Shown in pieces: positions 14,549 to 30,714 of a DNA stretch of 64,000 bases. Origin of the DNA: an uncultured Planctomycetales bacterium (lineage in GTDB: Bacteria; Omnitrophota; Gorgyraeia; Zapsychrales; Fredricksoniimonadaceae); assembly GCA_964520655.1 (NCBI GenBank), contig CAZFNI010000003.1, forward strand, positions 6,220 to 70,219, written 5' to 3'. Position numbers and translations under genes: made by a program. The first letter of the stretch is position 1, and the number at the start of each line of letters is the position of its first letter. The notes beneath the pieces were generated by a model. The model searched no databases. It was given only the letters and a program-made list of their open reading frames with translations, and had not been told where the DNA came from.

Positions 14549-14594
14549 ATAGAAAGAGATGCTAAAATTCTTGCCAGTAATAGACTCTTTCTAT
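14549..14594 (+). promoter_or_regulatory. 10-bp inverted repeat ATAGAAAGAG-N26-CTCTTTCTAT spanning the nrdG to kinase intergenic region; right arm overlaps the kinase ATG
   Basis: Perfect arms at 14549-14558 and 14585-14594; no T-run, so more likely an operator or start-codon-sequestering hairpin than a terminator. Confidence 0.3.
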
Positions 14595-15648
14595 GGAAAA
14601 GAATATAGATAATATAGACCTGCAAAGATCCCTCAAAGAGCTGGCGGATATGAAATTCGCGCTCGATGCGGCCTCCATTGTCGCGATCACGGACCGCAAA
14701 GGTGATATCATTTACGTGAATGATAAATTCTGTCAGATCTCTAAGTACAACAGGAATGAGCTCTTAGGTAAAAATCATCGCATCATCAATTCCGGTTATC
14801 ACCCCAAAGAATTTTTCAAGGACATGTGGCGCACTATCATGGTTGGCAAAGTTTGGAAGGGGGAGATCTGCAATAAAGCCAAAGACGGCAGTTTATATTG
14901 GGTGGATTCGACCATTGTGCCCTTCCTCAATGAAAAGGGTCTCCCGTATCAGTATTTGTCCATCCGCAATGAGGTCACGGCCCGCAAACTCATGGAAGAA
15001 CAGCTCAAGGCTCTCCCCAAGCGCATTATCCAGGCGCAGGAAAGCGAATGTAACCGCATTGCTCGTGATATCCATGATGATCTGGGGCAGTCTTTGGCCA
15101 CGCTTAAGATGATGATCCAGTCGTCTCTAGTCGAAACGGCCAAGAATGCGCGGCATGATAAGGACTCGGTGCGTATCCTCGAATATTTGAACGGTATCAT
15201 CGATCGTTCCCGGGGGCTGGCGACCCGCCTGCGTCCATCGACGCTGGAGGTGCTTGGACTTTCAACCGCGATCAAGCTGCTGGCGAGGGATATTAGTCAC
15301 TCAAAAAAATTTAAAGTGCATTTTTCTTCAATTTCTACCAACGGCCTGCAATTTGAGGGAGAGGCGATCAATGTTTTCCGCATTGTCCAGGAAGCCTTGT
15401 CCAATAGCATGAAACATGCCAGGGCAAGCAAGGTCAATGTGCGCATGGCCCGGCGTCAAGGCCGGTTTAAAGTTGTCATTGAAGATAATGGCCGAGGGTT
15501 TAAGGCCAATGACAAAAGTTTGGGGCTGGGGCTTGTGACCATGAAAGAGAGGGCCAAGCTGTTGGGCGGTTCTATTGATATTCGATCGATCGTCGGTAAA
15601 GGAACGATCATTTCTTTAGATATTCCTGTAAAGGATAAGGCTGTATGA
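14593..15648 (+). CDS. PAS-domain sensor histidine kinase (HisKA_3/NarX-DegS type)
   Basis: PAS segment (ITDRKGDIIYVNDKFCQISKY...), H-box 'ARDIHDDLGQSLATLKM', HATPase N/G boxes (EALSNSMKHA, IEDNGRGF, GLGLVTMKERA). Confidence 0.75.
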   Translation: MEKNIDNIDLQRSLKELADMKFALDAASIVAITDRKGDIIYVNDKFCQISKYNRNELLGKNHRIINSGYHPKEFFKDMWRTIMVGKVWKGEICNKAKDGSLYWVDSTIVPFLNEKGLPYQYLSIRNEVTARKLMEEQLKALPKRIIQAQESECNRIARDIHDDLGQSLATLKMMIQSSLVETAKNARHDKDSVRILEYLNGIIDRSRGLATRLRPSTLEVLGLSTAIKLLARDISHSKKFKVHFSSISTNGLQFEGEAINVFRIVQEALSNSMKHARASKVNVRMARRQGRFKVVIEDNGRGFKANDKSLGLGLVTMKERAKLLGGSIDIRSIVGKGTIISLDIPVKDKAV

Positions 15649-16289
15649 AAACCATCAGGGTGATCTTAGCCGATGATCATGAAATGTTCCGCTCGGGTTT
15701 AAAAGCCCTGCTGGACAAGGAGCCGGATTTCAAGGTCGTGGCACAGGCACAGGACGGCGAGCAGCTGTTGGAGAAATTGGCCTCTGCGGTATGCGACTGT
15801 GTGGTCATGGACTTAAGCATGCCAAATCTCGATGGTTTGGCGGCGCTTAAAGAGATAGAACAGAAGTACCCCAAGACAAAATGCCTGGTACTGACCATGC
15901 AGAAGGACGAAGAGCATTTTAAAAAAGCCATGGCCCACGGGGCAAAGGGGTATATCCTTAAAGACAGAGCGTTTGATTCGCTGGTCGTGGCCATTAAGAC
16001 GGTCATCCGGGGAAAATCGTTCGTGTCGCCGTCCATTTCGGATATTATCACCCGGCAATTTGTCAGCTCCATCCGAGAGGGGGACAGTCCGTCCCTGGAA
16101 TTATTAACGCCCCGGGAGAAAGAAATATTGAAGCTGATCGCCCTGGGGGCGGCCAATAAGAATATTGCCACAAGGCTTAAGATCAGTATCCGCACTGTTG
16201 AAACTCATCGCAGTCATTTGATCCATAAGCTAGGGCTGAAAACGACAGCGGCGTTAGTCAAGTATGCGATGTCTAAAGGGATCGTTTAG
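15645..16289 (+). CDS. NarL/FixJ-family response regulator (REC + LuxR HTH)
   Basis: Receiver (RVILADDHEMFR...DLSMPNLDG) and LuxR-type HTH 'LTPREKEILKLIALGAANKNIATRLKISIRTVETHRSHLIHKLG'; ATGA-coupled to the kinase. Confidence 0.8.
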   Translation: MKTIRVILADDHEMFRSGLKALLDKEPDFKVVAQAQDGEQLLEKLASAVCDCVVMDLSMPNLDGLAALKEIEQKYPKTKCLVLTMQKDEEHFKKAMAHGAKGYILKDRAFDSLVVAIKTVIRGKSFVSPSISDIITRQFVSSIREGDSPSLELLTPREKEILKLIALGAANKNIATRLKISIRTVETHRSHLIHKLGLKTTAALVKYAMSKGIV

Positions 16290-16357
16290 CCGGATTACGT
16301 GTTTCTACGTAGGGTTATCCGTATAATGTCGCATATAATGAAATCTTCATTTCTTTT

Positions 16358-16744
16358 ATGATGTCTTCTATGTCAAAAACCATTTTGATCGTGGAAGACC
16401 ATAAAGACTTCAGAAAAGAAGTCAGGCATTTTTTAGAAGTCAGCAAAGTGGATGCCCGTTTAGTGGAAGCAGCGTCGGGTGAGGAAGGGGTTTTAGTCGC
16501 AAAGGAAACGCGGCCGCAGATCGTCCTCATGGATTTTTGGCTGGGCGGTCTAAACGGCATCGACGCAGCGGCGCAGATCAAGGAAACAGTGCCAGGCTGT
16601 TCCATCATCATGCTGACGATGTTTGACACAAAAGAGATCGGGAAGCTGAACACCAGGAACCACATTAAAACGTTCATTAATAAAGGGGATCTTTTCAAGC
16701 AGTTGATCCCCAGCCTTAAAAAGATATTGAATTCGGTCAATTAG
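16358..16744 (+). CDS. Single-domain response-regulator receiver (CheY-like)
   Basis: 'ILIVEDHKDFRKEV...VLMDFWLGGLNGID...K' receiver pattern. Confidence 0.6.
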   Translation: MMSSMSKTILIVEDHKDFRKEVRHFLEVSKVDARLVEAASGEEGVLVAKETRPQIVLMDFWLGGLNGIDAAAQIKETVPGCSIIMLTMFDTKEIGKLNTRNHIKTFINKGDLFKQLIPSLKKILNSVN

Positions 16745-16763
16745 TCATTTTTCAAGGAGCAGC

Positions 16764-17816
16764 ATGAAAATTTTGGCGATAGGCTTAAACCACCGAACAT
16801 CTTCTATTGATCTTAGAGAGAAATTCTATGTCAGCCCCCAGGAACGGGAGCTGCTGATCGCGCAGTTCAAAACGGATGCCCAAGTCATGTCCGCTGTTGT
16901 TCTCTCCACCTGCAACCGCTGCGAGATCTATGCCAATGTCGTCGATGATTGCGAGCCTAAGCATATCATCCAAATGCTTTTTACCTTAAAACACCTGCCG
17001 CTGGATGATCAATATGTGAAAATGTTCTACACGCTGCAGGGTCCGGAGGCTGTCACCCATTTTCTGGAGGTCGCCTGCGGTCTGGATTCACTGATCCTGG
17101 GGGAGAAGCAGATCCTTGGGCAGATCAAGGAAGCGGTCGGTGTTTCCCGCGAAAAAGGATTGATGGACAAAACACTCAATATCCTCACCAACTATGTTTT
17201 AGAGACAGGCAAAAAAGCCCGGCAGGACACCCAGATCGATTTTGGCGGGATGTCGGTCAGCGCCGCAGCGGTCTCAACGGCCCAGGCAATGCTTGGTTCG
17301 TTGCAGGATAAAAGCGTTTTGGTCGTCGGCTCCGGTAAGATGGGAGCGCTGGCGCTCAATTATCTTCACCAAAAGAAAGCCAAAAAGATCTATTTGATGA
17401 ACAGGACTTTAGAGAATGCCGCCGCGCTGGCTCAAGAAGTAAAGGCGGAGGTTGTGCCTTTCTGGAACATGAAAGAGGTGCTCGCCGAGGTGGATGTGTG
17501 TATTTGCTCCTCGGGCGCTCCGCATTATCTGATCACCAAAGATCTCATGGAAAATGTGGCCCTGGCGCGCCAAACTCCGGTCATTTTGATCGATATTTCG
17601 ATGCCGCGCAACATTGATCCCGCCGTTGCCGGGATCAGCGGTGTCACGTTAGTTGAGCTGGATGATTTAGACAAGGTCATCGAACGCACGGTGTTAACAC
17701 GTCAAGATGCGGTCAAGGAAGTGGCGGCACTTGTCATTCGCAAAAGGGAAGAATTTTATAATGCCATGGCAAAGATCGAGGCCATGGCCGGTCAACAGGT
17801 TTTAATGTCATCTTAA
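16764..17816 (+). CDS. hemA: Glutamyl-tRNA reductase (short form, 350 aa)
   Basis: 'STCNRCEIY' catalytic Cys motif, 'GLDSLILGE', NADPH-binding 'VVGSGKMG'. Confidence 0.75.
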   Translation: MKILAIGLNHRTSSIDLREKFYVSPQERELLIAQFKTDAQVMSAVVLSTCNRCEIYANVVDDCEPKHIIQMLFTLKHLPLDDQYVKMFYTLQGPEAVTHFLEVACGLDSLILGEKQILGQIKEAVGVSREKGLMDKTLNILTNYVLETGKKARQDTQIDFGGMSVSAAAVSTAQAMLGSLQDKSVLVVGSGKMGALALNYLHQKKAKKIYLMNRTLENAAALAQEVKAEVVPFWNMKEVLAEVDVCICSSGAPHYLITKDLMENVALARQTPVILIDISMPRNIDPAVAGISGVTLVELDDLDKVIERTVLTRQDAVKEVAALVIRKREEFYNAMAKIEAMAGQQVLMSS

Positions 17817-17833
17817 ACATCCAAGGGGGAAAT

Positions 17834-18130
17834 ATGAACGTCACATCTCAAAGATCAACTGTTTTAATGCTCGTTATCGCGGGCATGTTTGTCTTGTCGG
17901 GCGCGATCCCGGCCCAGGCTGACATTAAAGAGATCAAGAAGTACAAAGAAGCTTTTCCTGAAAGCAAACCAAAGTGCATTGAATGCCATGTTTCAGATAA
18001 GCCCAAAAAAGATGACGGTCAGCATGAGATGAACGATTATGGCAAAGCGGTCGTCGAGAAGTCGAAAGAAACAACAGCGGATACTTATAAAGAAGTTGGC
18101 AAGATCGAAGATTTCAAACCCAAACAATAA
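17834..18130 (+). CDS. Periplasmic monoheme cytochrome c (Lys-rich, 98 aa)
   Basis: Signal peptide; single 'CIECH' heme-binding motif. Confidence 0.6.
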   Translation: MNVTSQRSTVLMLVIAGMFVLSGAIPAQADIKEIKKYKEAFPESKPKCIECHVSDKPKKDDGQHEMNDYGKAVVEKSKETTADTYKEVGKIEDFKPKQ

Positions 18131-18148
18131 CAAGCGAACGGAGAGCGT

Positions 18149-18892
18149 ATGAAAGTCCACCATCTCATCATTGTTGTCTTAAGCTTGTTCCTGGCTTTTG
18201 TTAAGCCTGCTTTTGCGTTGGATGCAAGATCCCAGGAACTTGTCAGGACAGCGACATATGTCGGTTCCGAGACATGTGCCACCTGTCACGAGAAGGAGTC
18301 TAGGCAATTTAAGCTATCCACCCACGCGCGTATTTCCAATGACGCCAATGAGGGCACGGCCCAGGGGTGTGAAATGTGTCACGGACCTGGCAGTGTCCAC
18401 GCGGATGCTAACGGAGGCAAAGGCAGCATCATTAATCCGAAAAAAGATCCGAGCATTTGTTTCACCTGCCATACAGAGAAGCGCGCGGAATTTAATCTGC
18501 CTTACCGTCATCCGGTTCTCGAGGGTAAGATGAGCTGTTCTGACTGCCACAGCCCGCATGGCGAAGAAGTTAAGCCCTGGAGTTCCACCAGCATGAATGA
18601 TGCCAATGAAGCCTGCTTCAAATGCCATAAGGAACAGCAGGGACCGTTCGTGTGGGAACATGAAGCCACGCGCGACGGCTGTTCTAGCTGCCATAAAGTG
18701 CATGGTTCGGTTAATGACAAAATGTTGATCGCCAGGGATTCCAACCTGTGTTTGCGTTGTCATACGCAGACGAATTTCCAGACGATCGGTAAGTCAAACC
18801 ATAACGGCCGCCTGAACCACGCGAGCTGTTTCACCGCCGGATGTCACACAGCGGTGCATGGATCGAACTTTGATGATCACTTACGGTATTAA
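18149..18892 (+). CDS. Periplasmic multiheme (8-heme) c-type cytochrome, MtrA/MtoA/OmaB-like
   Basis: Signal peptide; 7 CxxCH (CATCH, CEMCH, CFTCH, CSDCH, CFKCH, CSSCH, CLRCH) plus one Cx4CH (CFTAGCH); short inter-heme spacing typical of MtrA-type wires. Confidence 0.75.
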   Translation: MKVHHLIIVVLSLFLAFVKPAFALDARSQELVRTATYVGSETCATCHEKESRQFKLSTHARISNDANEGTAQGCEMCHGPGSVHADANGGKGSIINPKKDPSICFTCHTEKRAEFNLPYRHPVLEGKMSCSDCHSPHGEEVKPWSSTSMNDANEACFKCHKEQQGPFVWEHEATRDGCSSCHKVHGSVNDKMLIARDSNLCLRCHTQTNFQTIGKSNHNGRLNHASCFTAGCHTAVHGSNFDDHLRY

Positions 18893-18909
18893 GGCCAAAG
18901 GAGCGCAGT

Positions 18910-20979
18910 ATGAATAAACCACAATCATATAAGTTTTTCAGCAGTTTGCTGGCGTGTGTGATCGCCTTGAGCTTTACGGCTTATGGCGTGCACGCTCAGG
19001 AAACCTCGAATCCGGTGAACATCACCCTGATGCCGTTTGCGATCACCACGGTTAAAGGCGATGCCCAGAAATTCAGGGCCATGCACTGGATCAACGACGG
19101 GTATTCTTATGGGATCAAAGACCTCACCATTGAGGATAGTTCCAATAAGAACGCCAATGTGTCCTTGGAAGCGCATTCTATTCCAAATGATTACGATAAT
19201 GCGCTTGACTTAACCTTAACTAAGGAAAATGTCGGTTATGTCAAGACGGATTATGCGTCGTTCCGTAAGTATTACGACGGGACCGGCGGTACGTATTATC
19301 CGCACACCACGTTTAGCGCGTTAACGCTGGAAGATGATCTTAAGATGGACATGCAGCATATGTTCGTTGAGATCGGTTCCAAGACGGCGGATGATCCTGG
19401 CGTGGCTGTCGCTTTTGAGCGCCACAGCAAGGATGGTCGTAAATCCAGGCTGGCTTGGACGGCGGTGAAATTCGGGTCTGTGACCCGCGACATTGGTCCG
19501 ACCTGGCAGGATGTAGAGGAAGTCACTGATGCTGTTGCCTTAAAAGGCAACGGTGAAGTGGCTGGCTTTAATGTCGGCGCTGAACAGAAATTCGAGTTTA
19601 CCCACATCAAGTCGCTGCGCGAGGAAAAATTTCTCAGCGCGGCCGGCGGGGTGAGCTCTGATACGAAAATGCGCCGCCAGTGGCAGGATCCTCAGACGGA
19701 TCTGTACACAACGACCTTGAAAGGCGACCGCTGGTTTAACAATGACAAGAACCATTTGTCATTAGGGTACCGTTACAGCAATCTTGAAAACAGTGAATTG
19801 GAGAATTTAAGGGAATACACTGCTGCTGGGGTTCCTAATAATTATTCCAATCCTAAAAGTGCGATCAACGCGTATGCCAAAAATCGCTATAATGCGCATA
19901 CGACGGTAGGGAGTTTTATGTCTCAGCTTGGTAAGGATCTGAATTTCATTACCAAGATGAAAGCGGAGGTGCTAAACCGTAGGGGCACGTCCGCCTATCC
20001 GCATGATACAACGTCGGGCGCACCGGACGGGATCATCAATACGACGGATGTGAGCACGACCGAGAATAAGATCTACCGATTAGGAGAGAATTTCTCCTTG
20101 CGCTATAATGGGATTTCTAAGACAAGTCTCTATAGCGAAGTTGAGATGGAGCAAACACGCAACTGGTTAACCGAAGAGAGAAACAGCATCGCAGGACAGT
20201 CTGCTGCTGAGGCGGGCGAACAATTAGGGCGCGAGACGATCACCCATGTCCAGAACTTGGTTGCGACCGCGGGTGCCCGCTATGTTCCCTCAAAGGCATT
20301 AAGCATCACGACACAGGTCCGTCATAAACTCAACAACAATGATTATGACGACGTTATTGAAACAGTGTATGCATCCGGTTCAAAATCCGCCTTCGTTGAT
20401 GCGGTCAAGACCCGGGGGGATGAGTTGACAACAAAAGTCTCCTGGAAGCCGGTCAACAGGGTGGAAGGGGTTTTCCGTTATAAGCTCAGCGACACTAAGT
20501 ATATGCCCAGAGTGGAGAGCCAGGAAGAAACCAAGTCCCGCGGATTAAGCAATGTCTTCGGGTATGATCTAAACTTGCAGCCGACGGATCCGTTGTTCGT
20601 GACCCTGTCTTTTTCTCAGGATTTCAGCAACGTGACCACGCCGGCGGGGGCGAGCACATCATTGCAGTACCCCGGATTTAGATCGAATTCCAATAATTGG
20701 TTGATGGCCACCAGTTATATGATCAATGAGAAATGGAGCCTCAACAGCTCGTTCCAATACACGTTGATCAAGAATTTCAACGACGTGACCTCGACTTTGC
20801 TGCCTTATGCTGCGGACAGCAAGAGTTACGATGGGGCTGTGGGATTGTCATGGAGCGTGAACAAGTCCTTGACCGTGTCACCACATTACGGTTATTATGC
20901 GTATAAGCCAAACAGCATGGCGGAATCAGGCGCATATAATGCCCAAGTGGTGTGGTTGGATGCGAAGTTATTATGGTAA
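18910..20979 (+). CDS. Outer-membrane beta-barrel porin (689 aa), MtrB/MtoB/OmbB-like partner of the upstream cytochrome
   Basis: Signal peptide (…SFTAYGVHA/QE); long amphipathic beta-strand pattern; C-terminal '...WLDAKLLW' aromatic terminus; genomic context. Confidence 0.6.
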   Translation: MNKPQSYKFFSSLLACVIALSFTAYGVHAQETSNPVNITLMPFAITTVKGDAQKFRAMHWINDGYSYGIKDLTIEDSSNKNANVSLEAHSIPNDYDNALDLTLTKENVGYVKTDYASFRKYYDGTGGTYYPHTTFSALTLEDDLKMDMQHMFVEIGSKTADDPGVAVAFERHSKDGRKSRLAWTAVKFGSVTRDIGPTWQDVEEVTDAVALKGNGEVAGFNVGAEQKFEFTHIKSLREEKFLSAAGGVSSDTKMRRQWQDPQTDLYTTTLKGDRWFNNDKNHLSLGYRYSNLENSELENLREYTAAGVPNNYSNPKSAINAYAKNRYNAHTTVGSFMSQLGKDLNFITKMKAEVLNRRGTSAYPHDTTSGAPDGIINTTDVSTTENKIYRLGENFSLRYNGISKTSLYSEVEMEQTRNWLTEERNSIAGQSAAEAGEQLGRETITHVQNLVATAGARYVPSKALSITTQVRHKLNNNDYDDVIETVYASGSKSAFVDAVKTRGDELTTKVSWKPVNRVEGVFRYKLSDTKYMPRVESQEETKSRGLSNVFGYDLNLQPTDPLFVTLSFSQDFSNVTTPAGASTSLQYPGFRSNSNNWLMATSYMINEKWSLNSSFQYTLIKNFNDVTSTLLPYAADSKSYDGAVGLSWSVNKSLTVSPHYGYYAYKPNSMAESGAYNAQVVWLDAKLLW

Positions 20980-20987
20980 ATTGATCC

Positions 20988-22502
20988 ATGTCCCAGGAAC
21001 AGCATAAACGGAAACATCTGCGTTTCGCAGACGATTTCTACAATGTCATAACATATTTCGGTGTTGCGTTATCCATTGTAGTTCTCGTCTGCGAAACTAT
21101 TTTATTCTGGGTTGATTTTCTAAACCCGACGCATAACGACTATCTGGGGATCATTACCTATATCCTCCTGCCGCCGTTTTTGATCATCGGGTTGTTACTT
21201 ATCCCGTTTGGCGCCAGATGGAAGGCTGCCCGCGTCCGCAAGGGACTGGCGGAAAGTAAGCCTCAGGCCATTCACATCGATCTTTCCATCCCAGAGCATC
21301 AAAATGCTTTTATCATCTTTGTTATCGGGACGGTCATTGTCATGCTCATGACGGCGATCGGTTCGTACAAGGCGTATCATTACACCGAATCCAACCGTTT
21401 CTGCGGCGTCACCTGCCATGGCATCATGGAACCGGAGTTTAAGGCCCATTCGCAATCACCTCATGCGAAAGTCATGTGTGTCGACTGTCATATCGGCTCT
21501 GGTGCCGGGTCCTATGTCCATTATAAAATGGCCGGTGTCAGGATGTTGTTTGAGACATTCAAAGGGGATTATCAACGCCCTGTCCCAGCTCCAGTGACGA
21601 CACTAAGGCCTGCAAAAGAAATTTGTGAAGAATGCCATTGGCCGGGCAAATCATTTAGCGCCATTCAAATGAAGAAATCATATTTTGCCGACGATCCGAG
21701 TAAAACGCCCAAGTGGGGGATCTCGATGCTGATCCAGGTCGGAGGAAAGGATAAGGGCGGTTCAGGTATCCATGCGCACATGTATAATAACAATGACATT
21801 TATTACGTAGCGGATGATGAGAAGCGTCAAAAGATCACCTGGGTTAAAAGCATTGGCAAGAAAGGTGAAGAAAATATTTATGTGACCAAAGATTCGCCAT
21901 ACAAAGACAAGGCGCCGGATCCTGCCAAGATCAGGAGAATGGACTGCATGGATTGCCACAACCGTCCGTCCCATCACTATAAAGCCCCGGATGTCTTGAT
22001 GAATCAGGCCTTGGAGGATGATCTGATCAGTCCCAGCATACCCATGATCAAGGGCAAGGGGGTAGAGGTTCTGGCTAAGGAATATAAAGACAAAACGGAG
22101 GCCTTTAAGAATATTGAGACTTCATTAACTCATTATTATGCGACCAAACAGACGGAATATTACTCGACCCATCAGGTCGAGGTCAAGAAAGCGATTGAGG
22201 CGATCAAGGTCATGTATGAGAATAATTTCTTTCCGCTCATGAAAGCGCGCTGGGATGCTTATCCGGATAATGTCGGTCACATGATCTCCGACGGATGTTT
22301 CCGCTGCCATGACGATGAGCATAAGACGAAAACGGGAGGGAATATTTCCAGGGACTGCAAGATCTGTCACATTATCACCCAGCAGGGATCTGGAGCCGAT
22401 ATTGAAAAGAATGTGGACGGAGTGGAATTCAAGCATCCATTCGAGGATGATGGTTCCTGGCAAAGCATGAATTGCTCCCAGTGCCATACCGGTGGGGGGT
22501 AG
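20988..22502 (+). CDS. Inner-membrane 7-heme c-type cytochrome, NapC/NirT-type with 3 N-terminal TM helices (ImcH-like)
   Basis: Three TM helices in the first ~150 aa, then CGVTCH, CVDCH, CEECH, CMDCH, CFRCH, CKICH, CSQCH. Confidence 0.7.
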   Translation: MSQEQHKRKHLRFADDFYNVITYFGVALSIVVLVCETILFWVDFLNPTHNDYLGIITYILLPPFLIIGLLLIPFGARWKAARVRKGLAESKPQAIHIDLSIPEHQNAFIIFVIGTVIVMLMTAIGSYKAYHYTESNRFCGVTCHGIMEPEFKAHSQSPHAKVMCVDCHIGSGAGSYVHYKMAGVRMLFETFKGDYQRPVPAPVTTLRPAKEICEECHWPGKSFSAIQMKKSYFADDPSKTPKWGISMLIQVGGKDKGGSGIHAHMYNNNDIYYVADDEKRQKITWVKSIGKKGEENIYVTKDSPYKDKAPDPAKIRRMDCMDCHNRPSHHYKAPDVLMNQALEDDLISPSIPMIKGKGVEVLAKEYKDKTEAFKNIETSLTHYYATKQTEYYSTHQVEVKKAIEAIKVMYENNFFPLMKARWDAYPDNVGHMISDGCFRCHDDEHKTKTGGNISRDCKICHIITQQGSGADIEKNVDGVEFKHPFEDDGSWQSMNCSQCHTGGG

Positions 22503-22587
22503 TGAATAAGGTTTGCTGCTGCGAAAACAAAGAAATTTCCCAACGGATTTAGAAATGTTGATACAATCTCCTCAAAAGGAGATACTT

Positions 22588-22983
22588 ATGATCGAATGGA
22601 AAGATGCTTACGCAACTGGTAATGAAGCGGTGGATCGTCAGCACCGCCTGTTGTTCGATTTCTTTAATGATTTTGAATCAGTGATCAATGAAGGCAAGGG
22701 TAAGCATTACCTGGAAAAAAGTTTTGGGATGCTTGAGGCCTATGCCGCGGCGCATTTTAAGTTTGAAGAACGATGCATGGATGAGGCGCGTTGTTCGGTT
22801 TCCCAGAAGAACAAGATCGCTCACCAGATGTTTTTGGCTAAAGTTCAGGAATTCAAACGGGCATTTGAAACCAAAGAAGTGAAGGACGATTTCTATGTCG
22901 AGATGCACAGCTTCATTGAACAGTGGATCACCAGCCATATCATCGGTATTGATACGCACTTAAAGGATTGTATAAAAAAGTAA
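22588..22983 (+). CDS. Bacteriohemerythrin (HHE cation-binding domain)
   Basis: 'MIEWKDAYATGNEAVDRQHRLLFDFFNDF' plus downstream His/Glu ligands (HFKFEERCMDE, HQMF, HIIGIDTHL); SD 'aaaggag' before ATG 22588 (the ORF-track start at 22513 is upstream of it). Confidence 0.7.
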   Translation: MIEWKDAYATGNEAVDRQHRLLFDFFNDFESVINEGKGKHYLEKSFGMLEAYAAAHFKFEERCMDEARCSVSQKNKIAHQMFLAKVQEFKRAFETKEVKDDFYVEMHSFIEQWITSHIIGIDTHLKDCIKK

Positions 22984-22987
22984 GATA

Positions 22988-25000
22988 ATGGATCTCCTGA
23001 AAGTTCTTATAGCCGCAGGGGTTTTGTTGGGGAGCTCTTCTTTTTCTTTTGCGCAGGAAAAGAAGGCGGAAGAGCCGTTGACCAAAGCATCATGCTTGGA
23101 ATGCCACGCTGACAATGATCCTGTTGTCGACGAAAAATTATTAAATTCCTCCGTCCATAAAAACCTCAATTGCATCGAATGCCACGCGGATATTAAAGAA
23201 GTCCCTCATGACACAGTAGCGAAAGTTGATTGTTCCAGGTGTCACAGAGATATTGCCAATATGCTGAAAGTCAGCATCCATGCCCAGATCTTCGGCAATG
23301 CGGCCAACGGCGTCCTTACCTGCACGGAATGTCACGGCAAGCACGATATTTTTCCTAAATCTGACAGCCGTTCTCAGATCAATCATTTCAAAAGCGACAC
23401 GGCCTGTTTAAAATGCCATACGAATAAAGAATTGTTAAAGAAGTACCCTGGTTTACCGACGTCTGATTTCATTAACGAGTATTTGACTAGCGTGCACGGC
23501 AAAGGCGTCCATTTAAAGGGTTTAAGTGTTTCCGCGACCTGTGTGGATTGTCACGGGCCGCATAATATACTCCCGGCGTCTAATCCGCGTTCACCGGTCA
23601 ATAAAAAGAACATTCCTGTCACTTGCAGCAAATGCCATCAGGGGATCTATGATCAATATATCACCAGTATCCACGGAAAATTGTGGAAGAACGGCCGAAA
23701 AGATGTCCCAACCTGTACCTCGTGTCATTCCGAACACGGGATCGTCGATCCATTAAGCAGTGCCGCACAGAAGAATATCCCGAAAGAATGCGGGCAATGC
23801 CACAAAGAACAAAGTGAAACCTATAAAGACACGTTCCACGGGAAAGCAACATCGTTAGGTTTTGGGCAAAGCGCGAAATGCTCCGGCTGTCACGGCGTCC
23901 ACGACATCCTGCCGGCATCAGATCCACTCTCGACGATCAATAAGACCAATTTGCAGCAGACGTGCGCGAAATGTCATGCGAATACCAATGCCCGGTTTAT
24001 CGAATACGACCCGCATATCGATCCTTCGGATAAAGACGGTTCACCGATGGTCTTTTATACATATCAATTCATGAACTGGCTGCTGTTTAGCGTATTTTTA
24101 TTCTGGGGGCTGCACACATTGCTGTGGTTCCAGCGCAGCATGGTCGCCTTGATCCGCCGGGAATTCACTGTCGATCCACATGGCAAGCAGTATATCCGAC
24201 GTTTCACGAATTTGCAGCGCCGGATGCATGGGGTCGTGGTGGTGTCTTTCTTGGGGTTGGTGATGACTGGCTTGCCGTTAAAATATTATTACACGGCATG
24301 GGGCCAGCAGCTTAACGTTCTTTTGGGAGGGGTCGCCAATAACCGGTATTGCCACCGTGTTTTTGGGCTCATCACCATTGGGTATATCCTGTTCCACATG
24401 ATCCATGTCGCGCATCAGATCTTAGTCAAGAAAGATAAGGGGTATCTCAAAGGGCATACGTCGATGGTTCCGCGTGCCAAAGATTGGCAGGATTTTGTCG
24501 ATAATATCAAGTGGTTCTTCTATATGGGTGACCGGCCGAAGTATGACCGCTGGACGTATTTTGAGAAATTTGATTATCTGGCGGTGTTCTGGGGCGTCTT
24601 TATCATTGGATCGTCGGGGTTGATCATGTGGTTCCCGACATTCTTTACCCAGTTCTTGCCTGGATCCATCCTTAATGTGGCGGCGATCGTGCATAGCGAT
24701 GAAGCTCTTTTAGCCTTGGCGTTTATTTTTACGGTACATTTCTTCCACAACCATTTGCGCGTCGAGAATTTCCCGATCGACTTGAGCATTTTTAGCGGCG
24801 TTGTCCCTCTGGAGCGTTTCATCAAAGAACGACCGCAGGAGTATGAGCGTTTGGTCCAGGAAGGTACACTGGAGAAGTATCTTGTTCCGGCTCCAGCCCG
24901 TAAGACCATGATCAAGTGCTTCATCTTTGGATTCACAGCGTTGGCGATCGGTTTTATGCTGATCATCGTGATCATTGCGACATTTTTTGCTCACCATTAA
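22988..25000 (+). CDS. 11-heme c-type cytochrome fused to a C-terminal di-heme cytochrome b membrane domain (HydC/FdnI-like; CbcL-like)
   Basis: Signal peptide; 11 CxxCH motifs in residues 36-330; C-terminal ~300 aa with 4-5 TM helices carrying conserved His pairs (RMHGVVVV, LFHMIHVAHQ, IVHSDE, HFFHNH), typical of FdnI/HydC b-type cytochromes. Confidence 0.7.
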   Translation: MDLLKVLIAAGVLLGSSSFSFAQEKKAEEPLTKASCLECHADNDPVVDEKLLNSSVHKNLNCIECHADIKEVPHDTVAKVDCSRCHRDIANMLKVSIHAQIFGNAANGVLTCTECHGKHDIFPKSDSRSQINHFKSDTACLKCHTNKELLKKYPGLPTSDFINEYLTSVHGKGVHLKGLSVSATCVDCHGPHNILPASNPRSPVNKKNIPVTCSKCHQGIYDQYITSIHGKLWKNGRKDVPTCTSCHSEHGIVDPLSSAAQKNIPKECGQCHKEQSETYKDTFHGKATSLGFGQSAKCSGCHGVHDILPASDPLSTINKTNLQQTCAKCHANTNARFIEYDPHIDPSDKDGSPMVFYTYQFMNWLLFSVFLFWGLHTLLWFQRSMVALIRREFTVDPHGKQYIRRFTNLQRRMHGVVVVSFLGLVMTGLPLKYYYTAWGQQLNVLLGGVANNRYCHRVFGLITIGYILFHMIHVAHQILVKKDKGYLKGHTSMVPRAKDWQDFVDNIKWFFYMGDRPKYDRWTYFEKFDYLAVFWGVFIIGSSGLIMWFPTFFTQFLPGSILNVAAIVHSDEALLALAFIFTVHFFHNHLRVENFPIDLSIFSGVVPLERFIKERPQEYERLVQEGTLEKYLVPAPARKTMIKCFIFGFTALAIGFMLIIVIIATFFAHH

Positions 25001-25024
25001 AGATCGGGAACAAAGGAGCGGCGT

Positions 25025-25825
25025 ATGATCTATGAAAAGATGCTGGCTTCCGTTGTCCATTTCACCCGAGATTCGATCATCATCACCAATAAAGATCTTG
25101 ATCCCCCTGGTCCGTTCATTGTTTATGTGAATCCAGGATTCACTGCCATGACGGGGTATGAGCCGCATGAGGTGATCGGCCGTTCGCCGCGCATCCTGCA
25201 GGGCCCTAAAACAGATCCCGCTGTCACCAGGCGGCTTAAAGAAACATTGGAAAAGGGGGGTGTATTTTTCGGCCAAGCGGTCAATTACCGCAAGGACGGC
25301 TCGGAATTTTGGAATGAATGGCACATTGAGCCGATAAAAGATGCGGATGGGCAGGTGACGCATTATGTCGCGATCCAGCGTGATGTCACTGAACGAAAGA
25401 AAATAGAGGAGGCCATTGAGCAAAAGAACGCGGCCTTAAGGGAGGTGTTGGAACAGGTTTCGCTCGAGAAGCAGAATATCGCGCGCAATGTCAGCAGCAA
25501 TGCGCAGAAGATCATCCTGCCGGCGTTAAAAAAACTGCGCCGGAAAGCCAGCGCTTCGGATAGGGCCTATTTTGATGTCTTAGAGAAAAATCTTTTAGAC
25601 TTGACATCTACTTTTGGGGCGAATGTATCGGGGCAGAAATATTCATTGTCCCCGCGAGAGGTTGAGGTTGCCAATTTGATCAAAAGCGGATTTGGCAGCA
25701 AAGAGATCGCAGCGATGCTTAACATGTCTTTTAAAACGGTTGAAACCCACCGCAACAAGATCCGAAAGAAATTTGGGCTGTTGAATACCGATATCAATCT
25801 AACCACTTATCTTCAAACGATTTAG
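25025..25825 (+). CDS. LOV-like PAS domain + LuxR-type HTH transcription regulator (EL222-like architecture; flavin-adduct Cys absent)
   Basis: 'NPGFTAMTGYEPHEVIGRSPRILQGPKTDP...NYRKDGSEFWN...THYVAIQRDVTERK' matches the LOV core but has SPRILQ instead of NCRFLQ; C-terminal LuxR HTH 'SPREVEVANLIKSGFGSKEIAAMLNMSFKTVETHRNKIRKKFG'. Confidence 0.65.
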   Translation: MIYEKMLASVVHFTRDSIIITNKDLDPPGPFIVYVNPGFTAMTGYEPHEVIGRSPRILQGPKTDPAVTRRLKETLEKGGVFFGQAVNYRKDGSEFWNEWHIEPIKDADGQVTHYVAIQRDVTERKKIEEAIEQKNAALREVLEQVSLEKQNIARNVSSNAQKIILPALKKLRRKASASDRAYFDVLEKNLLDLTSTFGANVSGQKYSLSPREVEVANLIKSGFGSKEIAAMLNMSFKTVETHRNKIRKKFGLLNTDINLTTYLQTI

Positions 25826-25842
25826 GACGATCTTTCCCGATC

Positions 25843-25874
25843 ATATATCATGTATATTAACATACATGATATAT
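25843..25874 (+). promoter_or_regulatory. 13-bp perfect inverted repeat ATATATCATGTAT-N6-ATACATGATATAT (candidate operator)
   Basis: Arms at 25843-25855 and 25862-25874; followed by a TCAACC-gt-GGTTGA palindrome (25881-25894) overlapping a TTGACA -35-like hexamer (25891-25896) upstream of the CHI-like gene. Confidence 0.4.
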
Positions 25875-25924
25875 AGGCATTCAACCGTGGTTGACATATG
25901 TTCAAGATATGGTATCTTTAAGAC

Positions 25925-26521
25925 ATGAAGTCCTCATTACTCCACATACAAATGCTTGCTGTTCTTGTCATGACCGCCTTTGCTCTCCCTCAGGCACAGG
26001 CGGCAGAGGTTGCTGGGGTTCTTTTTAAGGATGCTTATCAGGACCAGGGCGAGCACATGGTCCTGCAGGGTACCGGACTTAAAAATGTGCTGTTCATCAA
26101 GGCTTTTGCGGCAGGATTCTATAAAGCGGTCGATGCCAACCCGGATCTGCTGGGGAATTATCCGAAGCGGATCGAGGTCGAGTATTTTGTCCATATCCCC
26201 GCCAGGAAATTGACCCGTTTTACGATCGATACGATGAAGGATAATGTCGACGCTGCAACAATGGATCGTTTGGCGGATGAGATCAAGATGATGGGCCGTT
26301 ACTTTGTGGACCTAAAGCCGGGAGATCGATTTGCACTGACGTATATCCCTGAAGTCGGCACCCAATTCTCTCATAATGATCGTTTGGTGGGGATCATTGA
26401 AGGATATGAGTTTGCCCGAGCGTTATTTTCAGTCTGGATCGGAGAAAAGCCTTTTGACGACCGTTTAAAGAAACAGGTCATCGGGAAGGGGCCTCTGCAG
26501 TCCTTTGAAAGCAACGTATAG
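25925..26521 (+). CDS. Secreted chalcone-isomerase-like (CHI-fold) family protein
   Basis: Signal peptide; 'VLQGTGLKNVLFIKAFAAGFY' resembles the L.G.G.R...K.YA.GLY signature of bacterial CHI-like proteins. Confidence 0.4.
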   Translation: MKSSLLHIQMLAVLVMTAFALPQAQAAEVAGVLFKDAYQDQGEHMVLQGTGLKNVLFIKAFAAGFYKAVDANPDLLGNYPKRIEVEYFVHIPARKLTRFTIDTMKDNVDAATMDRLADEIKMMGRYFVDLKPGDRFALTYIPEVGTQFSHNDRLVGIIEGYEFARALFSVWIGEKPFDDRLKKQVIGKGPLQSFESNV

Positions 26522-26590
26522 CCCGCCGTTCTCCCAACATTCATTTAGATAATTAGCGCGTAAATCCGCTCCATCGTATATAATGTCCCA

Positions 26591-28441
26591 ATGCATCAGC
26601 AGCGTAACTCGATCTATATAGCGTTTTTGGCTGTTGCTGGGATCACGGCCCATTTGATCATGCGCTTTGGTTTAGGATCTTCGGCGTATGTGGCATCATG
26701 GCCGTTGTGGGTCACGCTTGCCTTAGGCGGGACTCCGTTGGTGTGGGATCTTCTGCATAAAGCTATCCGTCGTCAATTCGGTTCCGATCAGTTGGCAGGG
26801 ATATCGATCGTGGTCTCCATCCTTTTAGGGGAATATTTAGCCGGTGCCTTAGTTGTGTTGATGTTGTCCGGCGGAGAAGCATTGGAAAGCTTTGCCATTG
26901 AGCGCGCGTCATCAGTCCTGGCGGCGTTGGCCAAACGCATGCCCAATAAAGCCCATCGTCGATCTTCTTCCAGCGATGTTCAGGATGTTTCGATCGACAC
27001 GATCAATGTCGGGGATCATCTGGTAGTTCTTCCACACGAGATATGTCCTGTGGACGGCGAGGTTATTGAAGGTCACGGTTCAATGGATGAATCCTATTTG
27101 ACCGGTGAGCCTTTTATCATTTCCAAGGTCATTGGTTCCCAGGTGTTATCCGGCGCTGTTAATGGCGAGTCGATGATGATGATCAAAGCTGTCAAACGCG
27201 CGGTGGATTCCCGTTACGCCAAGATCATGGAGGTCATGCGCGCCGCCGAGGAAAAACGCCCGCATCTGCAGCGGCTGGGGGATAAGCTCGGGGCGGTCTA
27301 TACCCCTGTAGCGCTTGTGATCGCGGCGGCGGCTTGGGGCCTGACCCATGATCCCATGCGTTTTTTAAGTGTTTTGGTCATTGCCACGCCCTGTCCGCTG
27401 CTGATCGCCATCCCGGTCGCGGTCATTGGATCGATCTCCCTTAGCGCTCGCCGGGGGATCATCATACGCAATCCGGCCATTTTAGAACAGATCGATCATT
27501 GCCATACGATCATCCTCGATAAGACAGGGACGCTGACGTACGGTCGTCCTGTTGTCACGGAGGTTAACTGTTATAACGGTTTTGACAAGTTAACGGTCCT
27601 GCAATTTGCTGCCAGCCTGGAACAGTATTCCAAACATCCGCTGTCGTTCGCGATCGTGGACGCGGCCAGGAAAGATAAGCTGGGGTTTAAGGATATCCGG
27701 CAGATCAGCGAAGCGGCTGGGGAAGGCTTGCGGGGTGTTGTTGACGGACATCAGGTGCTCATTACCAGCCGCGGCAAACTGGTCAAGGCCGGCAAAGAGA
27801 GCTGGTTTAAAGACGTGCCGCAATCCAGTGGTCTGGAATGTATGGTTGTGATCAATGATACGCTGGCGGCTCAGTTGCGTTTTCATGATGAGCCTCGCCG
27901 GGAAGGACAGTCTTTTATCAAACATTTGGGGCCAAGGCATAAGATCGACCGGGTGATGATCGTTTCCGGCGACCGTGAAAGTGAAGTGCGGTATCTGGCA
28001 GATAAAGTTGGGATCGATATGGTATATGCCGGACAAAGCCCGGAGGAAAAAATTGAGATCGTTCGGCGTGAAACGGGGCTAGGCCCGACCATGTATTTGG
28101 GTGACGGCATCAATGATGCGCCGGCGTTGACCGCAGCCACCGTCGGGATCGCTTTCGGCCAGAACAGCGAGATCACCACAGAGGCGGCCGGAGCGGTGAT
28201 CATGGATAGCTCTTTGACCAAGGTGGATGAATTGATGCACATCAGCCGGCGCATGCGTTCCATCGCTTTACAAAGCGCGCTTGGAGGAATGGCATTATCC
28301 ATCGTAGGCATGATGCTTGCGGCCTGTGGGTATTTAACACCTGTGGCGGGAGCAATTGGGCAGGAGATCATTGATGTTTTTGCTGTCTTAAATGCCCTGC
28401 GTGCGGCATTCCCTCCTAAAGATCTGACGGATTTTTCTTAA
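26591..28441 (+). CDS. P1B-type heavy-metal-translocating P-type ATPase lacking an N-terminal metal-binding domain (TPCP motif)
   Basis: 'DKTGTLT' phosphorylation site, 'GDGINDAPAL' hinge, TM6 'ATPCPLLIAIP', 'TGEP' actuator; begins directly with TM helices. Confidence 0.8.
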   Translation: MHQQRNSIYIAFLAVAGITAHLIMRFGLGSSAYVASWPLWVTLALGGTPLVWDLLHKAIRRQFGSDQLAGISIVVSILLGEYLAGALVVLMLSGGEALESFAIERASSVLAALAKRMPNKAHRRSSSSDVQDVSIDTINVGDHLVVLPHEICPVDGEVIEGHGSMDESYLTGEPFIISKVIGSQVLSGAVNGESMMMIKAVKRAVDSRYAKIMEVMRAAEEKRPHLQRLGDKLGAVYTPVALVIAAAAWGLTHDPMRFLSVLVIATPCPLLIAIPVAVIGSISLSARRGIIIRNPAILEQIDHCHTIILDKTGTLTYGRPVVTEVNCYNGFDKLTVLQFAASLEQYSKHPLSFAIVDAARKDKLGFKDIRQISEAAGEGLRGVVDGHQVLITSRGKLVKAGKESWFKDVPQSSGLECMVVINDTLAAQLRFHDEPRREGQSFIKHLGPRHKIDRVMIVSGDRESEVRYLADKVGIDMVYAGQSPEEKIEIVRRETGLGPTMYLGDGINDAPALTAATVGIAFGQNSEITTEAAGAVIMDSSLTKVDELMHISRRMRSIALQSALGGMALSIVGMMLAACGYLTPVAGAIGQEIIDVFAVLNALRAAFPPKDLTDFS

Positions 28442-28460
28442 TAATAGCAGGAAAGGCTAT

Positions 28461-28955
28461 ATGGAGCATATTCAGTATCAGGTAACATCAATGCTTGGGG
28501 CATTATATCTGACGGCATCTGATGCAGGATTGACCGGTGTGTATTTTGAGCGGCAGCCGATGCCTGTTGTGAAACGGTTTAAAGCAGAGTCTGTGGCAAA
28601 ACAGGTGCTGCTGGAAGCGGCGCAGCAGCTTGATGAATATTTTAAGGGAACGCGTAAGCGTTTTGATCTTCGGCTGCGGATGTCGGGGACGGATTTTCAG
28701 CAGCAGGTGTGGCGGGAATTATTGAAGATCCCGTATGGGAGAACTGTGTCTTATAGGGATATCGCGCGGCGGATCGAAAATCCTAAAGCCGTCCGGGCTG
28801 TTGGGGGAGCCAACGGCAGGAATCCTTTTTGTATCATCGTGCCTTGTCATCGGGTGATCGCCTCCGACGGTACGATCGGCGGCTATAGCGGAGGCCTCGG
28901 TATTAAGCGGCGTTTGCTTAAGCTCGAGGGGGTCTCCTGTGATAAAAATTTGTAA
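28461..28955 (+). CDS. ogt: Methylated-DNA--protein-cysteine methyltransferase
   Basis: Active-site 'IVPCHRVI' and 'VSYRDIARRI...AVGGANGRNP' HTH. Confidence 0.8.
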   Translation: MEHIQYQVTSMLGALYLTASDAGLTGVYFERQPMPVVKRFKAESVAKQVLLEAAQQLDEYFKGTRKRFDLRLRMSGTDFQQQVWRELLKIPYGRTVSYRDIARRIENPKAVRAVGGANGRNPFCIIVPCHRVIASDGTIGGYSGGLGIKRRLLKLEGVSCDKNL

Positions 28956-29014
28956 ATCCCCGGGTTTTTTTGTACACTTATTGTAATTGACTTAAATTAA
29001 AGAAAGACATTTGC

Positions 29015-30070: not shown

Positions 30071-30090
30071 ATAACAGCAAGGAGGCAGTA

Positions 30091-30714
30091 ATGAAGTTCT
30101 TATCACATTCTACAAAGGTTGTTCTATTGATGGCGGCCATGGTTTTATCCACAGCAGGCTTCTTTAGGGTTTATGCGGAAGAAACAGAAGAAGGTTTTAA
30201 GAAATTCACGGTCTATCAGGACAAGCCGTCGAGAAATCATTATTACATTTCCGGGTATATGCCAGACGGGCAATGCGTGGCCATGGATGATGCCTGGCAA
30301 AAGGATTGCCAGGAAGGCCGCAGCTGTATCAAGGCCTATTTCGGTCGAGAATGCGCGACGATGCATCAGGCCTGGGCCGGGGTTTACTGGCTTCATCCGG
30401 CGAATAACTGGGGCGATAGTAAGAGCGGTTACAGCCTAAAGGGAGCTAAGCGTTTGGTGTTCTGGGCTAAGGGTGACAAGGGCGGGGAGACGATCACCTT
30501 TAAGATGGGTGGCGTCGGGATGGGGCATACATTCCCGGATACAGATTCTGCTGGTACGGATCCCATCAAGCTTACCAAGGACTGGCAGGAGTATTCCATT
30601 GATCTGACGGGTAAAAACTTAGAGAGGATCGCCGGCGGTTTTGTCTGGGTGGCCAATGTCAAGGACAACAGCTCGAACGCCACGTTCTATCTGGACAATA
30701 TCTACTACGAATAA
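30091..30714 (+). CDS. Secreted hypothetical protein (beta-sandwich / CBM-like C-terminus)
   Basis: Signal peptide; 4 Cys; C-terminal 'ATFYLDNIYYE'; followed by a hairpin terminator. Confidence 0.4.
   Translation: MKFLSHSTKVVLLMAAMVLSTAGFFRVYAEETEEGFKKFTVYQDKPSRNHYYISGYMPDGQCVAMDDAWQKDCQEGRSCIKAYFGRECATMHQAWAGVYWLHPANNWGDSKSGYSLKGAKRLVFWAKGDKGGETITFKMGGVGMGHTFPDTDSAGTDPIKLTKDWQEYSIDLTGKNLERIAGGFVWVANVKDNSSNATFYLDNIYYE

Follow-up and report, generated by a model that had tools for sequence, protein, structure and literature searches.

How might an uncultivated bacterium carry electrons from its quinone pool to the outside of the cell, and could the genes required be gathered in a single cluster? 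The question is raised by a run of genes at approximately 16764-25825 in a 64,000 nt stretch of contig CAZFNI010000003.1 (assembly GCA_964520655.1, positions 6,220 to 70,219), the whole of which is referred to here as the window. A preliminary description had pointed to genes for two classes of inner-membrane multihaem cytochrome, ImcH-like and CbcL-like, lying together downstream of porin-cytochrome genes and separated by a hemerythrin gene. Our analysis makes it probable, without placing it beyond serious dispute, that this run of genes is the trans-envelope electron conduit cluster of an uncultivated, probably Omnitrophota, bacterium. The electrons would most likely come from (mena)quinol and end on an acceptor at the cell surface or beyond it, for example Fe(III), Mn(IV) or humic material.

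The cluster consists of eight + strand open reading frames (ORFs) in a row at 16764-25825, separated by gaps of 17, 18, 17, 8, 85, 4 and 24 bp. Its features, including one codon of particular interest, are as follows.

16764-17816, + strand: hemA, the first gene of the cluster, for a glutamyl-tRNA reductase of 350 amino acids (TIGR01035, 323 bits)
17834-18130, + strand: secreted monohaem c-type cytochrome of 98 amino acids, with a signal-peptide-like N-terminus and one CxxCH motif (CIECH)
18149-18892, + strand: periplasmic MtrA/DmsE-family multihaem cytochrome of 247 amino acids, with seven CxxCH motifs and one CX4CH motif, assigned by alignment with MtrA
18910-20979, + strand: MtrB-fold outer-membrane beta-barrel of 689 amino acids, assigned by the fold match of an AlphaFold2 (AF2) model
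20988-22502, + strand: ImcH-family inner-membrane heptahaem quinol dehydrogenase of 504 amino acids, assigned by transmembrane (TM) segments, haem motifs and PF03264
21543-21545, + strand: Met186 codon of the ImcH-like protein, in the column of Geobacter Gln179, the predicted distal ligand of haem 1
22588-22983, + strand: single-domain cytoplasmic bacteriohemerythrin of 131 amino acids (NF033749, TIGR02481)
22988-25000, + strand: CbcL/MtoC/MtrH-family fusion protein of 670 amino acids, with 11 CxxCH motifs and an FdnI-type b domain
25025-25825, + strand: one-component regulator of 266 amino acids, with a LOV-like PAS domain and a LuxR-type helix-turn-helix (HTH) domain (PAS_9 and GerE Pfam matches)

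At the inner membrane, sequence features confirm the product of 20988-22502 as a member of the ImcH family when set against published descriptions, in which the signature is one CX3CH motif beside the membrane domain and six CX2CH motifs (PMC6295460, PMC4251993). Hydrophobic segments at residues 24-42, 54-72 and 107-125 correspond to three TM helices, and the haem motifs are a CX3CH (CGVTCH) at residue 139 and CxxCH at residues 164, 213, 320, 437, 457 and 496. The preliminary description was right in recognizing an ImcH architecture with three TM helices and a NapC/NirT-like region, but its count of seven CxxCH motifs becomes six CxxCH and one CX3CH. Not one of the seven motifs varies among 24 homologues (47-77% identity), so none of them is spurious. 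The NapC/NirT family PF03264 matches residues 107-196 (36.1 bits against a cut-off of 24.1), and the sole relative in the PDB is NrfH (2j7a_C, E=2.5e-5, residues 128-232). The curated equivalog models scored far below their cut-offs, at 50.7 against 134.2 for NrfH (TIGR03153) and 20 against 478 for TorC; members of the NrfH, NapC and TorC families have four or five haems and one TM helix, whereas the window protein has seven haem motifs and three TM helices. A grouping with NrfH or NapC, put forward earlier as a possible outcome that would make the extra motifs spurious, is therefore disfavoured by both the model scores and the motif invariance. More than 4,900 matches to the ImcH-like protein were found, and the nearest named ones are from metagenome-assembled genomes (MAGs) of Omnitrophica or Omnitrophota; names of this kind, carried by homologues of the ImcH-like protein and of the porin described below, are the grounds for calling the bacterium probably Omnitrophota.

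The same protein departs from its Geobacter counterpart at one position of potential importance. In the Geobacter ImcH study, a structure model in a preprint gives haem 1 H137 as its proximal ligand and, as a prediction, Q179 as its distal one; E127, K173 and Y188 are named there as conserved residues of the proposed quinol pocket, and Q179 is reported to be conserved among homologues. With the alignment fixed by H137 = H144, a constant offset of +7 makes E134, K180 and Y195 of the window protein the counterparts of the three pocket residues. Among 141 aligned homologues the lysine never changes, E or D is found at position 134, and Y or F predominates at position 195. The column of Gln179 is occupied in the window protein by Met186, and in the 141 homologues this column holds Q or M alone: Q in 79 of 80 homologues drawn from diverse phyla, and M wherever identity to the window ImcH reaches 58% or more, as well as in two homologues at ~53%. 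Such a strictly binary column is the pattern expected of an axial-ligand position, and suggests His/Met instead of His/Gln ligation at the haem beside the predicted quinol site. His/Met ligation is expected to raise the potential of a haem. On this modelled ligation, Met186 would raise the potential of the quinol-proximal haem.

The second inner-membrane protein, encoded at 22988-25000, is confirmed by sequence and structure modelling as a member of the CbcL/MtoC/MtrH family in which an 11-haem c domain is fused to an FdnI-type dihaem b domain, as had been proposed. It has a signal peptide and 11 CxxCH motifs between residues 36 and 330, within a c domain that extends to approximately residue 345; ten of the motifs are invariant in 23 homologues and the first is at least 90% conserved. 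The conserved sets of seven and 11 motifs cannot be the product of chance, and the motif cysteines and histidines are the most conserved columns in both families. None of these ORFs contains a CxxCK motif, in agreement with the preliminary description. PF01292 matches residues 405-581 (33.8 bits, cut-off 30.1), and TIGR01583 scored 34.9 bits against a cut-off of 115.85. The AF2 model of the protein (predicted local distance difference test score, pLDDT, of 80) has helices at residues 353-389, 408-432, 449-480, 524-548, 560-586 and 638-669, and hydropathy supports five of the six TM helices at the threshold chosen.

Four histidines of the CbcL-like protein, H414, H456, H569 and H584, do not vary across the family alignment, and in a phmmer search with the full-length query they pair with H18, H57, H155 and H169 of FdnI (chain 1kqf_C); a PDB search with the b domain alone returned no match. 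The four FdnI residues are the haem-b ligands of the formate dehydrogenase-N structure. FdnI 1kqf_C is also the sole significant PDB fold match of the AF2 model, with a target-normalized TM-score of 0.72. Alignment and fold thus both favour a histidine arrangement suited to ligating b haems, the feature on which the CbcL assignment had been said to depend, and the two checks originally suggested for the pair gave concordant results: PF03264 and PF01292 were both matched above their cut-offs, and three TM helices were found in the ImcH-like protein and six (in the AF2 model) in the CbcL-like protein. The protein differs from CbcL sensu stricto, that is, orthologues of GSU0274, which have nine c-haems rather than 11. 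An ERWxY(W/F)EKFD(F/Y)xAVFWG motif is common to the window protein and to fragments of GSU0274, the latter read from a corrupted and unreliable alignment image. Members of the wider family have a periplasmic c domain with 3-23 CX2CH motifs and a six-TM dihaem cytochrome b similar to HydC and FdnI (PMC6295460), and the 11 haems that had been singled out are no oddity in it; as described below, 11 is also the commonest number in homologues encoded beside imcH.

At the outer membrane, the 247-residue cytochrome is a clear relative of 6r2q_A, the MtrA chain of the Mtr complex (phmmer E=2.5e-34), although it scored 172 bits against the 192.2 cut-off of TIGR03508 and has eight haem motifs where that decahaem family has ten. 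The PDB sequence table lists 6r2q_A as 'Cystathionine beta-synthase', while the fold table calls the entry the Mtr complex; the first of these labels misleads, as the 333-residue multihaem chain is MtrA. The 689-residue protein encoded immediately downstream is haem-free, with a signal peptide and a C-terminal Trp. No Pfam family matched it above cut-off (there was a single sub-threshold match, to DUF2490), and among 5.8 billion proteins it has 33 homologue clusters (P0242-P0273 among them), of which the three that are named are from Omnitrophota or Omnitrophica. An AF2 model built on those homologues (pLDDT 86.5) has approximately 26 long strands, and its best PDB fold match is MtrB (6r2q_B; TM-scores 0.67 and 0.70, 12% identity), other barrels reaching no more than 0.47. 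At the level of the fold, then, the protein corresponds to the 26-strand barrel of the MtrB/PioB type, while neither Pfam nor the homologue search detected any sequence similarity to MtrB or MtoB. Taken with the MtrA homologue specified by the preceding gene, the MtrB-fold porin supports a porin-cytochrome pair of the MtrAB type. The ImcH-like and CbcL-like genes do lie directly downstream of this pair, and it is plausible, as first suggested, that a complete path from inner to outer membrane is encoded in one co-directional cluster. Because screens based on sequence profiles for MtrB and PioB would miss this porin, they may undercount iron-cycling conduits of this kind.

Our data are consistent with a model in which quinol is oxidized by two routes that converge on a single outer-membrane wire. 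The ImcH-like protein would oxidize quinol at a site on the periplasmic side, in an electroneutral reaction, by analogy with NrfH and with Geobacter ImcH, which is electroneutral with protons released to the periplasm (bioRxiv 10.1101/2023.05.03.539133). The CbcL-like protein would also oxidize quinol, at a quinone site that the alignment with FdnI places near the haem b of the cytoplasmic side; outward electron flow by this route would be assisted by the membrane potential, at a cost in proton-motive force, as was likewise proposed for CbcL by the authors of the ImcH work (bioRxiv 10.1101/2023.05.03.539133). From either protein, electrons could cross the periplasm by way of the haems there and of the monohaem cytochrome, and so reach the MtrA-like wire, an octahaem cytochrome that would be sheathed in the MtrB-fold barrel. 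The two inner-membrane modules may offer two routes, one high-yield and the other low-potential, in line with Geobacter, which is reported to require ImcH at potentials above about -0.1 V and CbcL at that potential or lower (PMC5322298). With 27 c-haems and two b-haems to be provided for, the presence of hemA in the cluster makes sense, and its product would supply haem for these proteins. Through the PAS/LuxR regulators and the cytoplasmic hemerythrin, the expression or activity of the system probably responds to redox state, O2 or NO. What the analysis establishes directly is the family and fold to which each part belongs, the retention of cofactor ligands, the close spacing of the genes and the recurrent gene order; in this model we infer the co-transcription of the genes, physical interactions between their products, the direction of electron flow, the acceptor, the division of labour between the modules and the role of the hemerythrin. 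Co-transcription of 16764-25825 is plausible given the tight spacing of the genes and the lack of any terminator beyond chance expectation: promoter and terminator scans over 14000-27000 gave counts at chance level, with no intergenic terminator.

The bacteriohemerythrin between the two inner-membrane genes, reported in the preliminary description, is corroborated by scores of 92.2 bits for NF033749 (cut-off 84) and 99 bits for TIGR02481. Gene callers place its start at 22588, giving 131 residues, rather than at the TTG at 22513. Aligned with DcrH-Hr, it retains six of the seven diiron ligands (H19, H56, E60, H79, H117 and D122), and the first histidine of the helix-C HxxxH pair is replaced by Asn75 (codon 22810-22812), as it is in the orthologue of the related loci L083 and L090 (locus numbers are our own). 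The absence of a signal peptide indicates a cytoplasmic protein, which would most simply be an O2 or NO sensor or buffer. Outside this lineage the orthologue was found in a single close relative (L083/L090), a distribution so narrow that the hemerythrin is better seen as an accessory than as a core part of the system. We considered whether it might be a regular member of such clusters and rejected this, given that the orthologue is found in L083/L090 only; other hemerythrin-like ORFs nearby, with ORF lengths of approximately 155-200 residues, belong to a different family and turn up in few loci.

How rare is such an arrangement? The preliminary description set the adjacency of ImcH and CbcL genes against Geobacter, in which they are indeed unlinked; imcH is monocistronic in G. 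sulfurreducens (PMC4251993). A genome scan with an ImcH profile, of which the best 80 loci from many phyla were analysed (no Geobacter locus being among them), gives a different picture. An ORF with a CbcL-type b domain is present in 42 of these 80 loci, and in 37 it shares the strand of imcH at a distance below 1 kb, upstream of it in 34 of the 37; approximately half of the ImcH loci have no CbcL within 10 kb. The commonest haem count of the imcH-adjacent CbcL homologues is 11 (19/37). Neighbouring cbcL and imcH genes occur in Acidobacteriota, Ignavibacteriota, Bacteroidota, Verrucomicrobiota, KSB1, Calditrichota and others (loci within L008-L082). Two Terriglobales loci, L013 (3723-11470) and L082 (1548-9527), have a gene for a decahaem MtrA-like protein, then one resembling an outer-membrane protein gene (807-851 residues, with a signal peptide and a C-terminal YAF or YEF), and then cbcL-imcH. 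Pairing of the two genes in 37 of these 80 genomes speaks for a functional link between them.

Among closer relatives, the order hemA, monohaem cytochrome, MtrA-like cytochrome, porin and ImcH recurs in L003, L005, L083, L084, L087 and L088, as well as in many metagenome contigs, and what follows this core varies. In L083, the ImcH of which is 74% identical to that of the window, the core is followed by the hemerythrin gene without CbcL. L084 has neither hemerythrin nor CbcL, a 9-haem cytochrome and a Rieske/cytochrome b pair are inserted before ImcH in L085 (6666-9849), and L086 has CbcL followed by a different hemerythrin-like gene. In L087 and L088 the porin, ImcH and CbcL (11 haems) genes are directly adjacent, and their ImcH and CbcL proteins have similar identities to those of the window (~60-64%), which is consistent with co-inheritance. 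The synteny comparison suggested in the preliminary description therefore gave a divided answer, in that the conduit recurs together with ImcH, while CbcL and the hemerythrin are variable.

A metagenome scan with a porin profile yielded 80 more loci, and gene content was counted in the 25 that are well covered and non-redundant. ImcH was present in 18 of these, Rieske/cytochrome b in 13-14, CbcL in eight and a hemerythrin-like ORF in three, with ImcH and CbcL occurring together in seven. The window is one configuration of a modular cluster family, and ImcH-CbcL adjacency is common outside Geobacter. In many loci a 9-haem cytochrome of ~410 residues is encoded with Rieske and cytochrome b proteins between the porin and imcH, or beside imcH (L085, L091, L092, L100, L103, L104, L116, L120, L127, L129, L133, L138, L163 and others). 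L120 and L121 carry Rieske/cytochrome b, ImcH and two CbcL-type genes, for proteins with 19 and 11 haems, in a row.

The remaining genes of the cluster and its surroundings add some context. A hemA gene lies directly upstream of the cytochrome genes in L003, in L083-L088 and in many metagenome loci. The window hemA is short, covering positions 1-338 of the 416-position TIGR01035 model and lacking the C-terminal part, and the relatives L084 and L085 have a second glutamyl-tRNA reductase paralogue a few kb downstream. The position of the 98-residue monohaem cytochrome is kept in the clusters of relatives, and it has no relative in Pfam, NCBIfam or the PDB; its identification as an MtoD homologue was considered and rejected, as no PDB or Pfam similarity supports it. 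The PAS/LuxR regulator gene starts 24 bp past the CbcL-like gene and shows YtvA-family similarity of 116 bits, below the cut-off. It adjoins this cbcL on contig L089 and was present in none of the L083-L088 loci that were read, and its position suggests that it belongs to the system. We take its LOV and HTH architecture to resemble that of EL222. It reads GRSPRILQG where LOV domains read GRNCRFLQG, with Pro55 (codon 25187-25189) in place of Cys; the protein consequently lacks the adduct-forming Cys and might serve not in light sensing but as a flavin or redox sensor.

Three further regulatory genes, identified by Pfam and NCBIfam matches, lie immediately upstream of hemA.

14593-15648, + strand: PAS/HisKA_3 sensor kinase
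15645-16289, + strand: NarL/LuxR-type response regulator
16358-16744, + strand: single-domain response regulator

The same trio (14593..16744) is found upstream of hemA in the relatives L083, L087 and L088, and this conserved synteny makes its members candidate regulators of the cytochrome cluster. Further upstream are a CcsA-type cytochrome c assembly gene (9939-11696, Pfam) and the anaerobic ribonucleotide reductase genes nrdD and nrdG (11791-14534), named through annotated syntenic genes in L083 and L087. Downstream of the cluster (26591-43436) are genes for a P-type ATPase, a cupredoxin and an FTR1 iron permease (30841-32772), Fur (32870-33283), NnrS (41277-42464) and a rubrerythrin-VIT1 fusion (42483-43436). 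Such neighbours suggest anaerobic life and the handling of iron. Beyond those described here, the ORF listing contains no multihaem ORF in the cluster or the rest of the window, surface cytochromes of the MtrC/OmcB type included, and the window has no terminal oxidase. Some Omnitrophota are magnetotactic. No magnetosome family was matched by the 20 window ORFs that were run against Pfam, a comparison that included no search directed at magnetosome genes.

Several considerations weigh against outward electron transfer to an extracellular acceptor. Three-component conduits such as MtrCAB or OmaB-OmbB-OmcB include a surface cytochrome, and no outer-surface multihaem cytochrome of the MtrC/OmcB type is encoded in the cluster or the window. 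A two-component porin-cytochrome pair without a surface cytochrome is the layout of MtoAB and PioAB, which are linked to Fe(II) oxidation. CbcL is absent from L083, the closest relative on a long contig, and is thus dispensable for the conduit; Met186 in place of Gln may mean that the ImcH-like protein operates at a different potential from Geobacter ImcH; the conduit is known at the level of genes, its families having been set against those of Geobacter by description; and CbcL homologues (MtoC) are also found in iron oxidizers (PMC6295460). Some of these points suit an inward flow of electrons, in which Mto/Pio-like uptake through the MtrAB-like pair and the monohaem cytochrome, with Fe(II) or a cathode as donor, would feed the quinone pool via the CbcL/MtoC-like and ImcH-like proteins, or via Rieske/cytochrome b in relatives. 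Such a flow would accord with a two-component conduit like MtoAB or PioAB, with the Rieske/cytochrome b and 9-haem cytochrome module in 13-14 of the 25 related loci, with the iron-handling genes nearby (cupredoxin and FTR1, Fur, rubrerythrin-VIT1) and with a hemerythrin of the O2-binding type within the cluster. The set of monohaem cytochrome, MtrA-like protein, porin and CbcL/MtoC homologue mirrors the mtoD-mtoA-mtoB-mtoC clusters of Gallionella and Dechloromonas (PMC6295460), and screens with FeGenie have flagged Omnitrophica MAGs for iron oxidation as well as iron reduction (PMC8478452). However, ImcH has so far been implicated in quinol oxidation only (PMC6295460), a quinone site on the cytoplasmic side would make Fe(II)-driven quinone reduction costly if the redox-loop mechanism of FdnI applies, anaerobic ribonucleotide reductase genes lie just upstream while the window has no terminal oxidase, and the monohaem protein is unlike any solved cytochrome, MtoD included. 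We regard inward flow as rather unlikely.

Two other explanations turn on the meaning of the ImcH-CbcL adjacency. The proteins might be obligate partners, either in a quinone-cycling redox loop or in a supercomplex with quinol sites on opposite faces of the membrane, gated by the hemerythrin in response to O2 or NO; the predicted sites do lie on opposite faces (periplasmic for ImcH from the analogy with NrfH, cytoplasmic for CbcL from the alignment with FdnI), and the genes are immediate neighbours in 37 of the 80 genomes, across many phyla, and in seven of the 25 Omnitrophota-type loci. Nonetheless, this is very unlikely, as ImcH and CbcL are each reported to work alone in Geobacter, with potential-specific phenotypes for the single deletions, the close relatives L083-L085 retain ImcH and the conduit without CbcL, in approximately half of its loci ImcH has no CbcL within 10 kb, and the hemerythrin orthologue is known from two lineages only. 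Conversely, the adjacency might carry no meaning here, if the segment with cbcL, the PAS/LuxR gene and a chalcone-isomerase-like gene were a lineage-specific insertion serving an unrelated periplasmic redox process. L083 gives this idea its appeal, because it shares the flanks (ImcH and hemerythrin on one side, P-type ATPase and methyltransferase on the other) and carries, in the place of cbcL, PAS-LuxR and the Chalcone_3 gene of the window, a gene for a GDSL lipase. But the imcH-cbcL adjacency recurs in more distant members of the lineage with similar divergence for both proteins, it is found in many other phyla, and the gap between the hemerythrin gene and cbcL is 4 bp; an insertion of this kind is highly improbable. 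A conduit that carries quinol-derived electrons outwards remains the reading that we favour.

The searchable literature, which includes few subscription journals and is weak evidence in this respect, contained no account of the Omnitrophota cluster or of the Met variant, and nowhere says outright that imcH and cbcL are often neighbours. A 2018 survey reported no mtrAB or mtoAB beside imcH (PMC6295460), and in Desulfuromonas soudanensis the ImcH and CbcL homologues are seven locus tags apart (DSOUD_0207 and DSOUD_0214). Three aspects of our work look new: the linkage of imcH to a porin-cytochrome pair in a recurrent Omnitrophota conduit cluster, a porin family with an MtrB fold that is invisible to sequence profiles, and an ImcH subclade with Met in place of the predicted distal Gln ligand of haem 1. 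More speculatively, and with a good deal more doubt than confidence, linked imcH-cbcL could be an ancestral and widespread form of the two-route quinol exit that was split in Geobacter, and that an Omnitrophota subclade built into an operon with its own conduit and haem supply, a Met-retuned ImcH and a hemerythrin O2/NO gate. If true, this would make a mineral or electrode respirer with a distinct redox switch of a poorly understood and uncultivated phylum.

As well as offering a genetic basis for extracellular electron transfer in the Omnitrophota, a widespread and uncultivated phylum with a poorly known energy metabolism, the locus bears on how bacteria choose between quinol-oxidizing routes of different energy yield. 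ImcH and CbcL have been studied almost only in Geobacter, in which they are unlinked, yet in roughly half of the other lineages sampled their genes lie side by side, and this pairing bears on the interaction partners of ImcH, a question raised in PMC4251993. The binary Gln/Met column at the predicted haem-1 ligand represents a natural experiment on how the quinol-proximal haem sets the working potential.

The cluster has parts in common with several known systems. Some elements are shared with subunits of enzymes that act on soluble substrates: the CbcL-like protein has the four-helix dihaem b core of Escherichia coli FdnI (1KQF chain C), with all four histidines aligned, and a TM helix and the first haems of the ImcH-like protein align with Desulfovibrio NrfH (2J7A chain C). 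Compared with both, the window proteins are far larger fusions or extensions. ImcH of G. sulfurreducens (GSU3259) is the closer counterpart, being of similar length (507 residues, against 504 in the window) and sharing three N-terminal TM helices, a CX3CH next to the third of them plus six CxxCH, a NapC/NirT-like region, and the quinol-pocket Glu, Lys and Tyr at an offset of +7. It differs in having Gln179 where the window protein has Met186, in belonging to a different phylum, and in its monocistronic gene, in contrast to the window gene behind a porin-cytochrome pair. CbcL (GSU0274), MtoC and MtrH share with the window protein a multihaem c domain fused to a six-TM dihaem b domain of the HydC/FdnI type, although CbcL has nine c-haems against 11; like the window gene, mtoC and mtrH are clustered with mtrAB-type genes.

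In the outer membrane, MtrA and MtrB of the Shewanella baltica MtrCAB complex (PDB 6R2Q) match the window pair, which has no MtrC and two fewer haems. The nearest parallels for the cluster as a whole are the Mto clusters of iron oxidizers (mtoD-mtoA-mtoB with cymA/imoA or mtoC), which share an MtrAB-type conduit and small periplasmic cytochromes, and the mtr cluster of Rhodoferax ferrireducens (two cymA genes with mtrH and mtrABC), which also joins a conduit to inner-membrane cytochromes (PMC6295460). Both include quinone-coupled cytochromes of the inner membrane, a CbcL homologue among them, as the window does, and the Mto clusters likewise lack a surface decahaem cytochrome. The NapC/NirT-type partner in the Mto and Rhodoferax systems is the tetrahaem CymA, whereas in the window it is ImcH; their MtrA homologue has 10 haems, against eight haem motifs; their MtrB and MtoB proteins have no detectable sequence similarity to the window porin; and hemA and a hemerythrin gene are also part of the window cluster.

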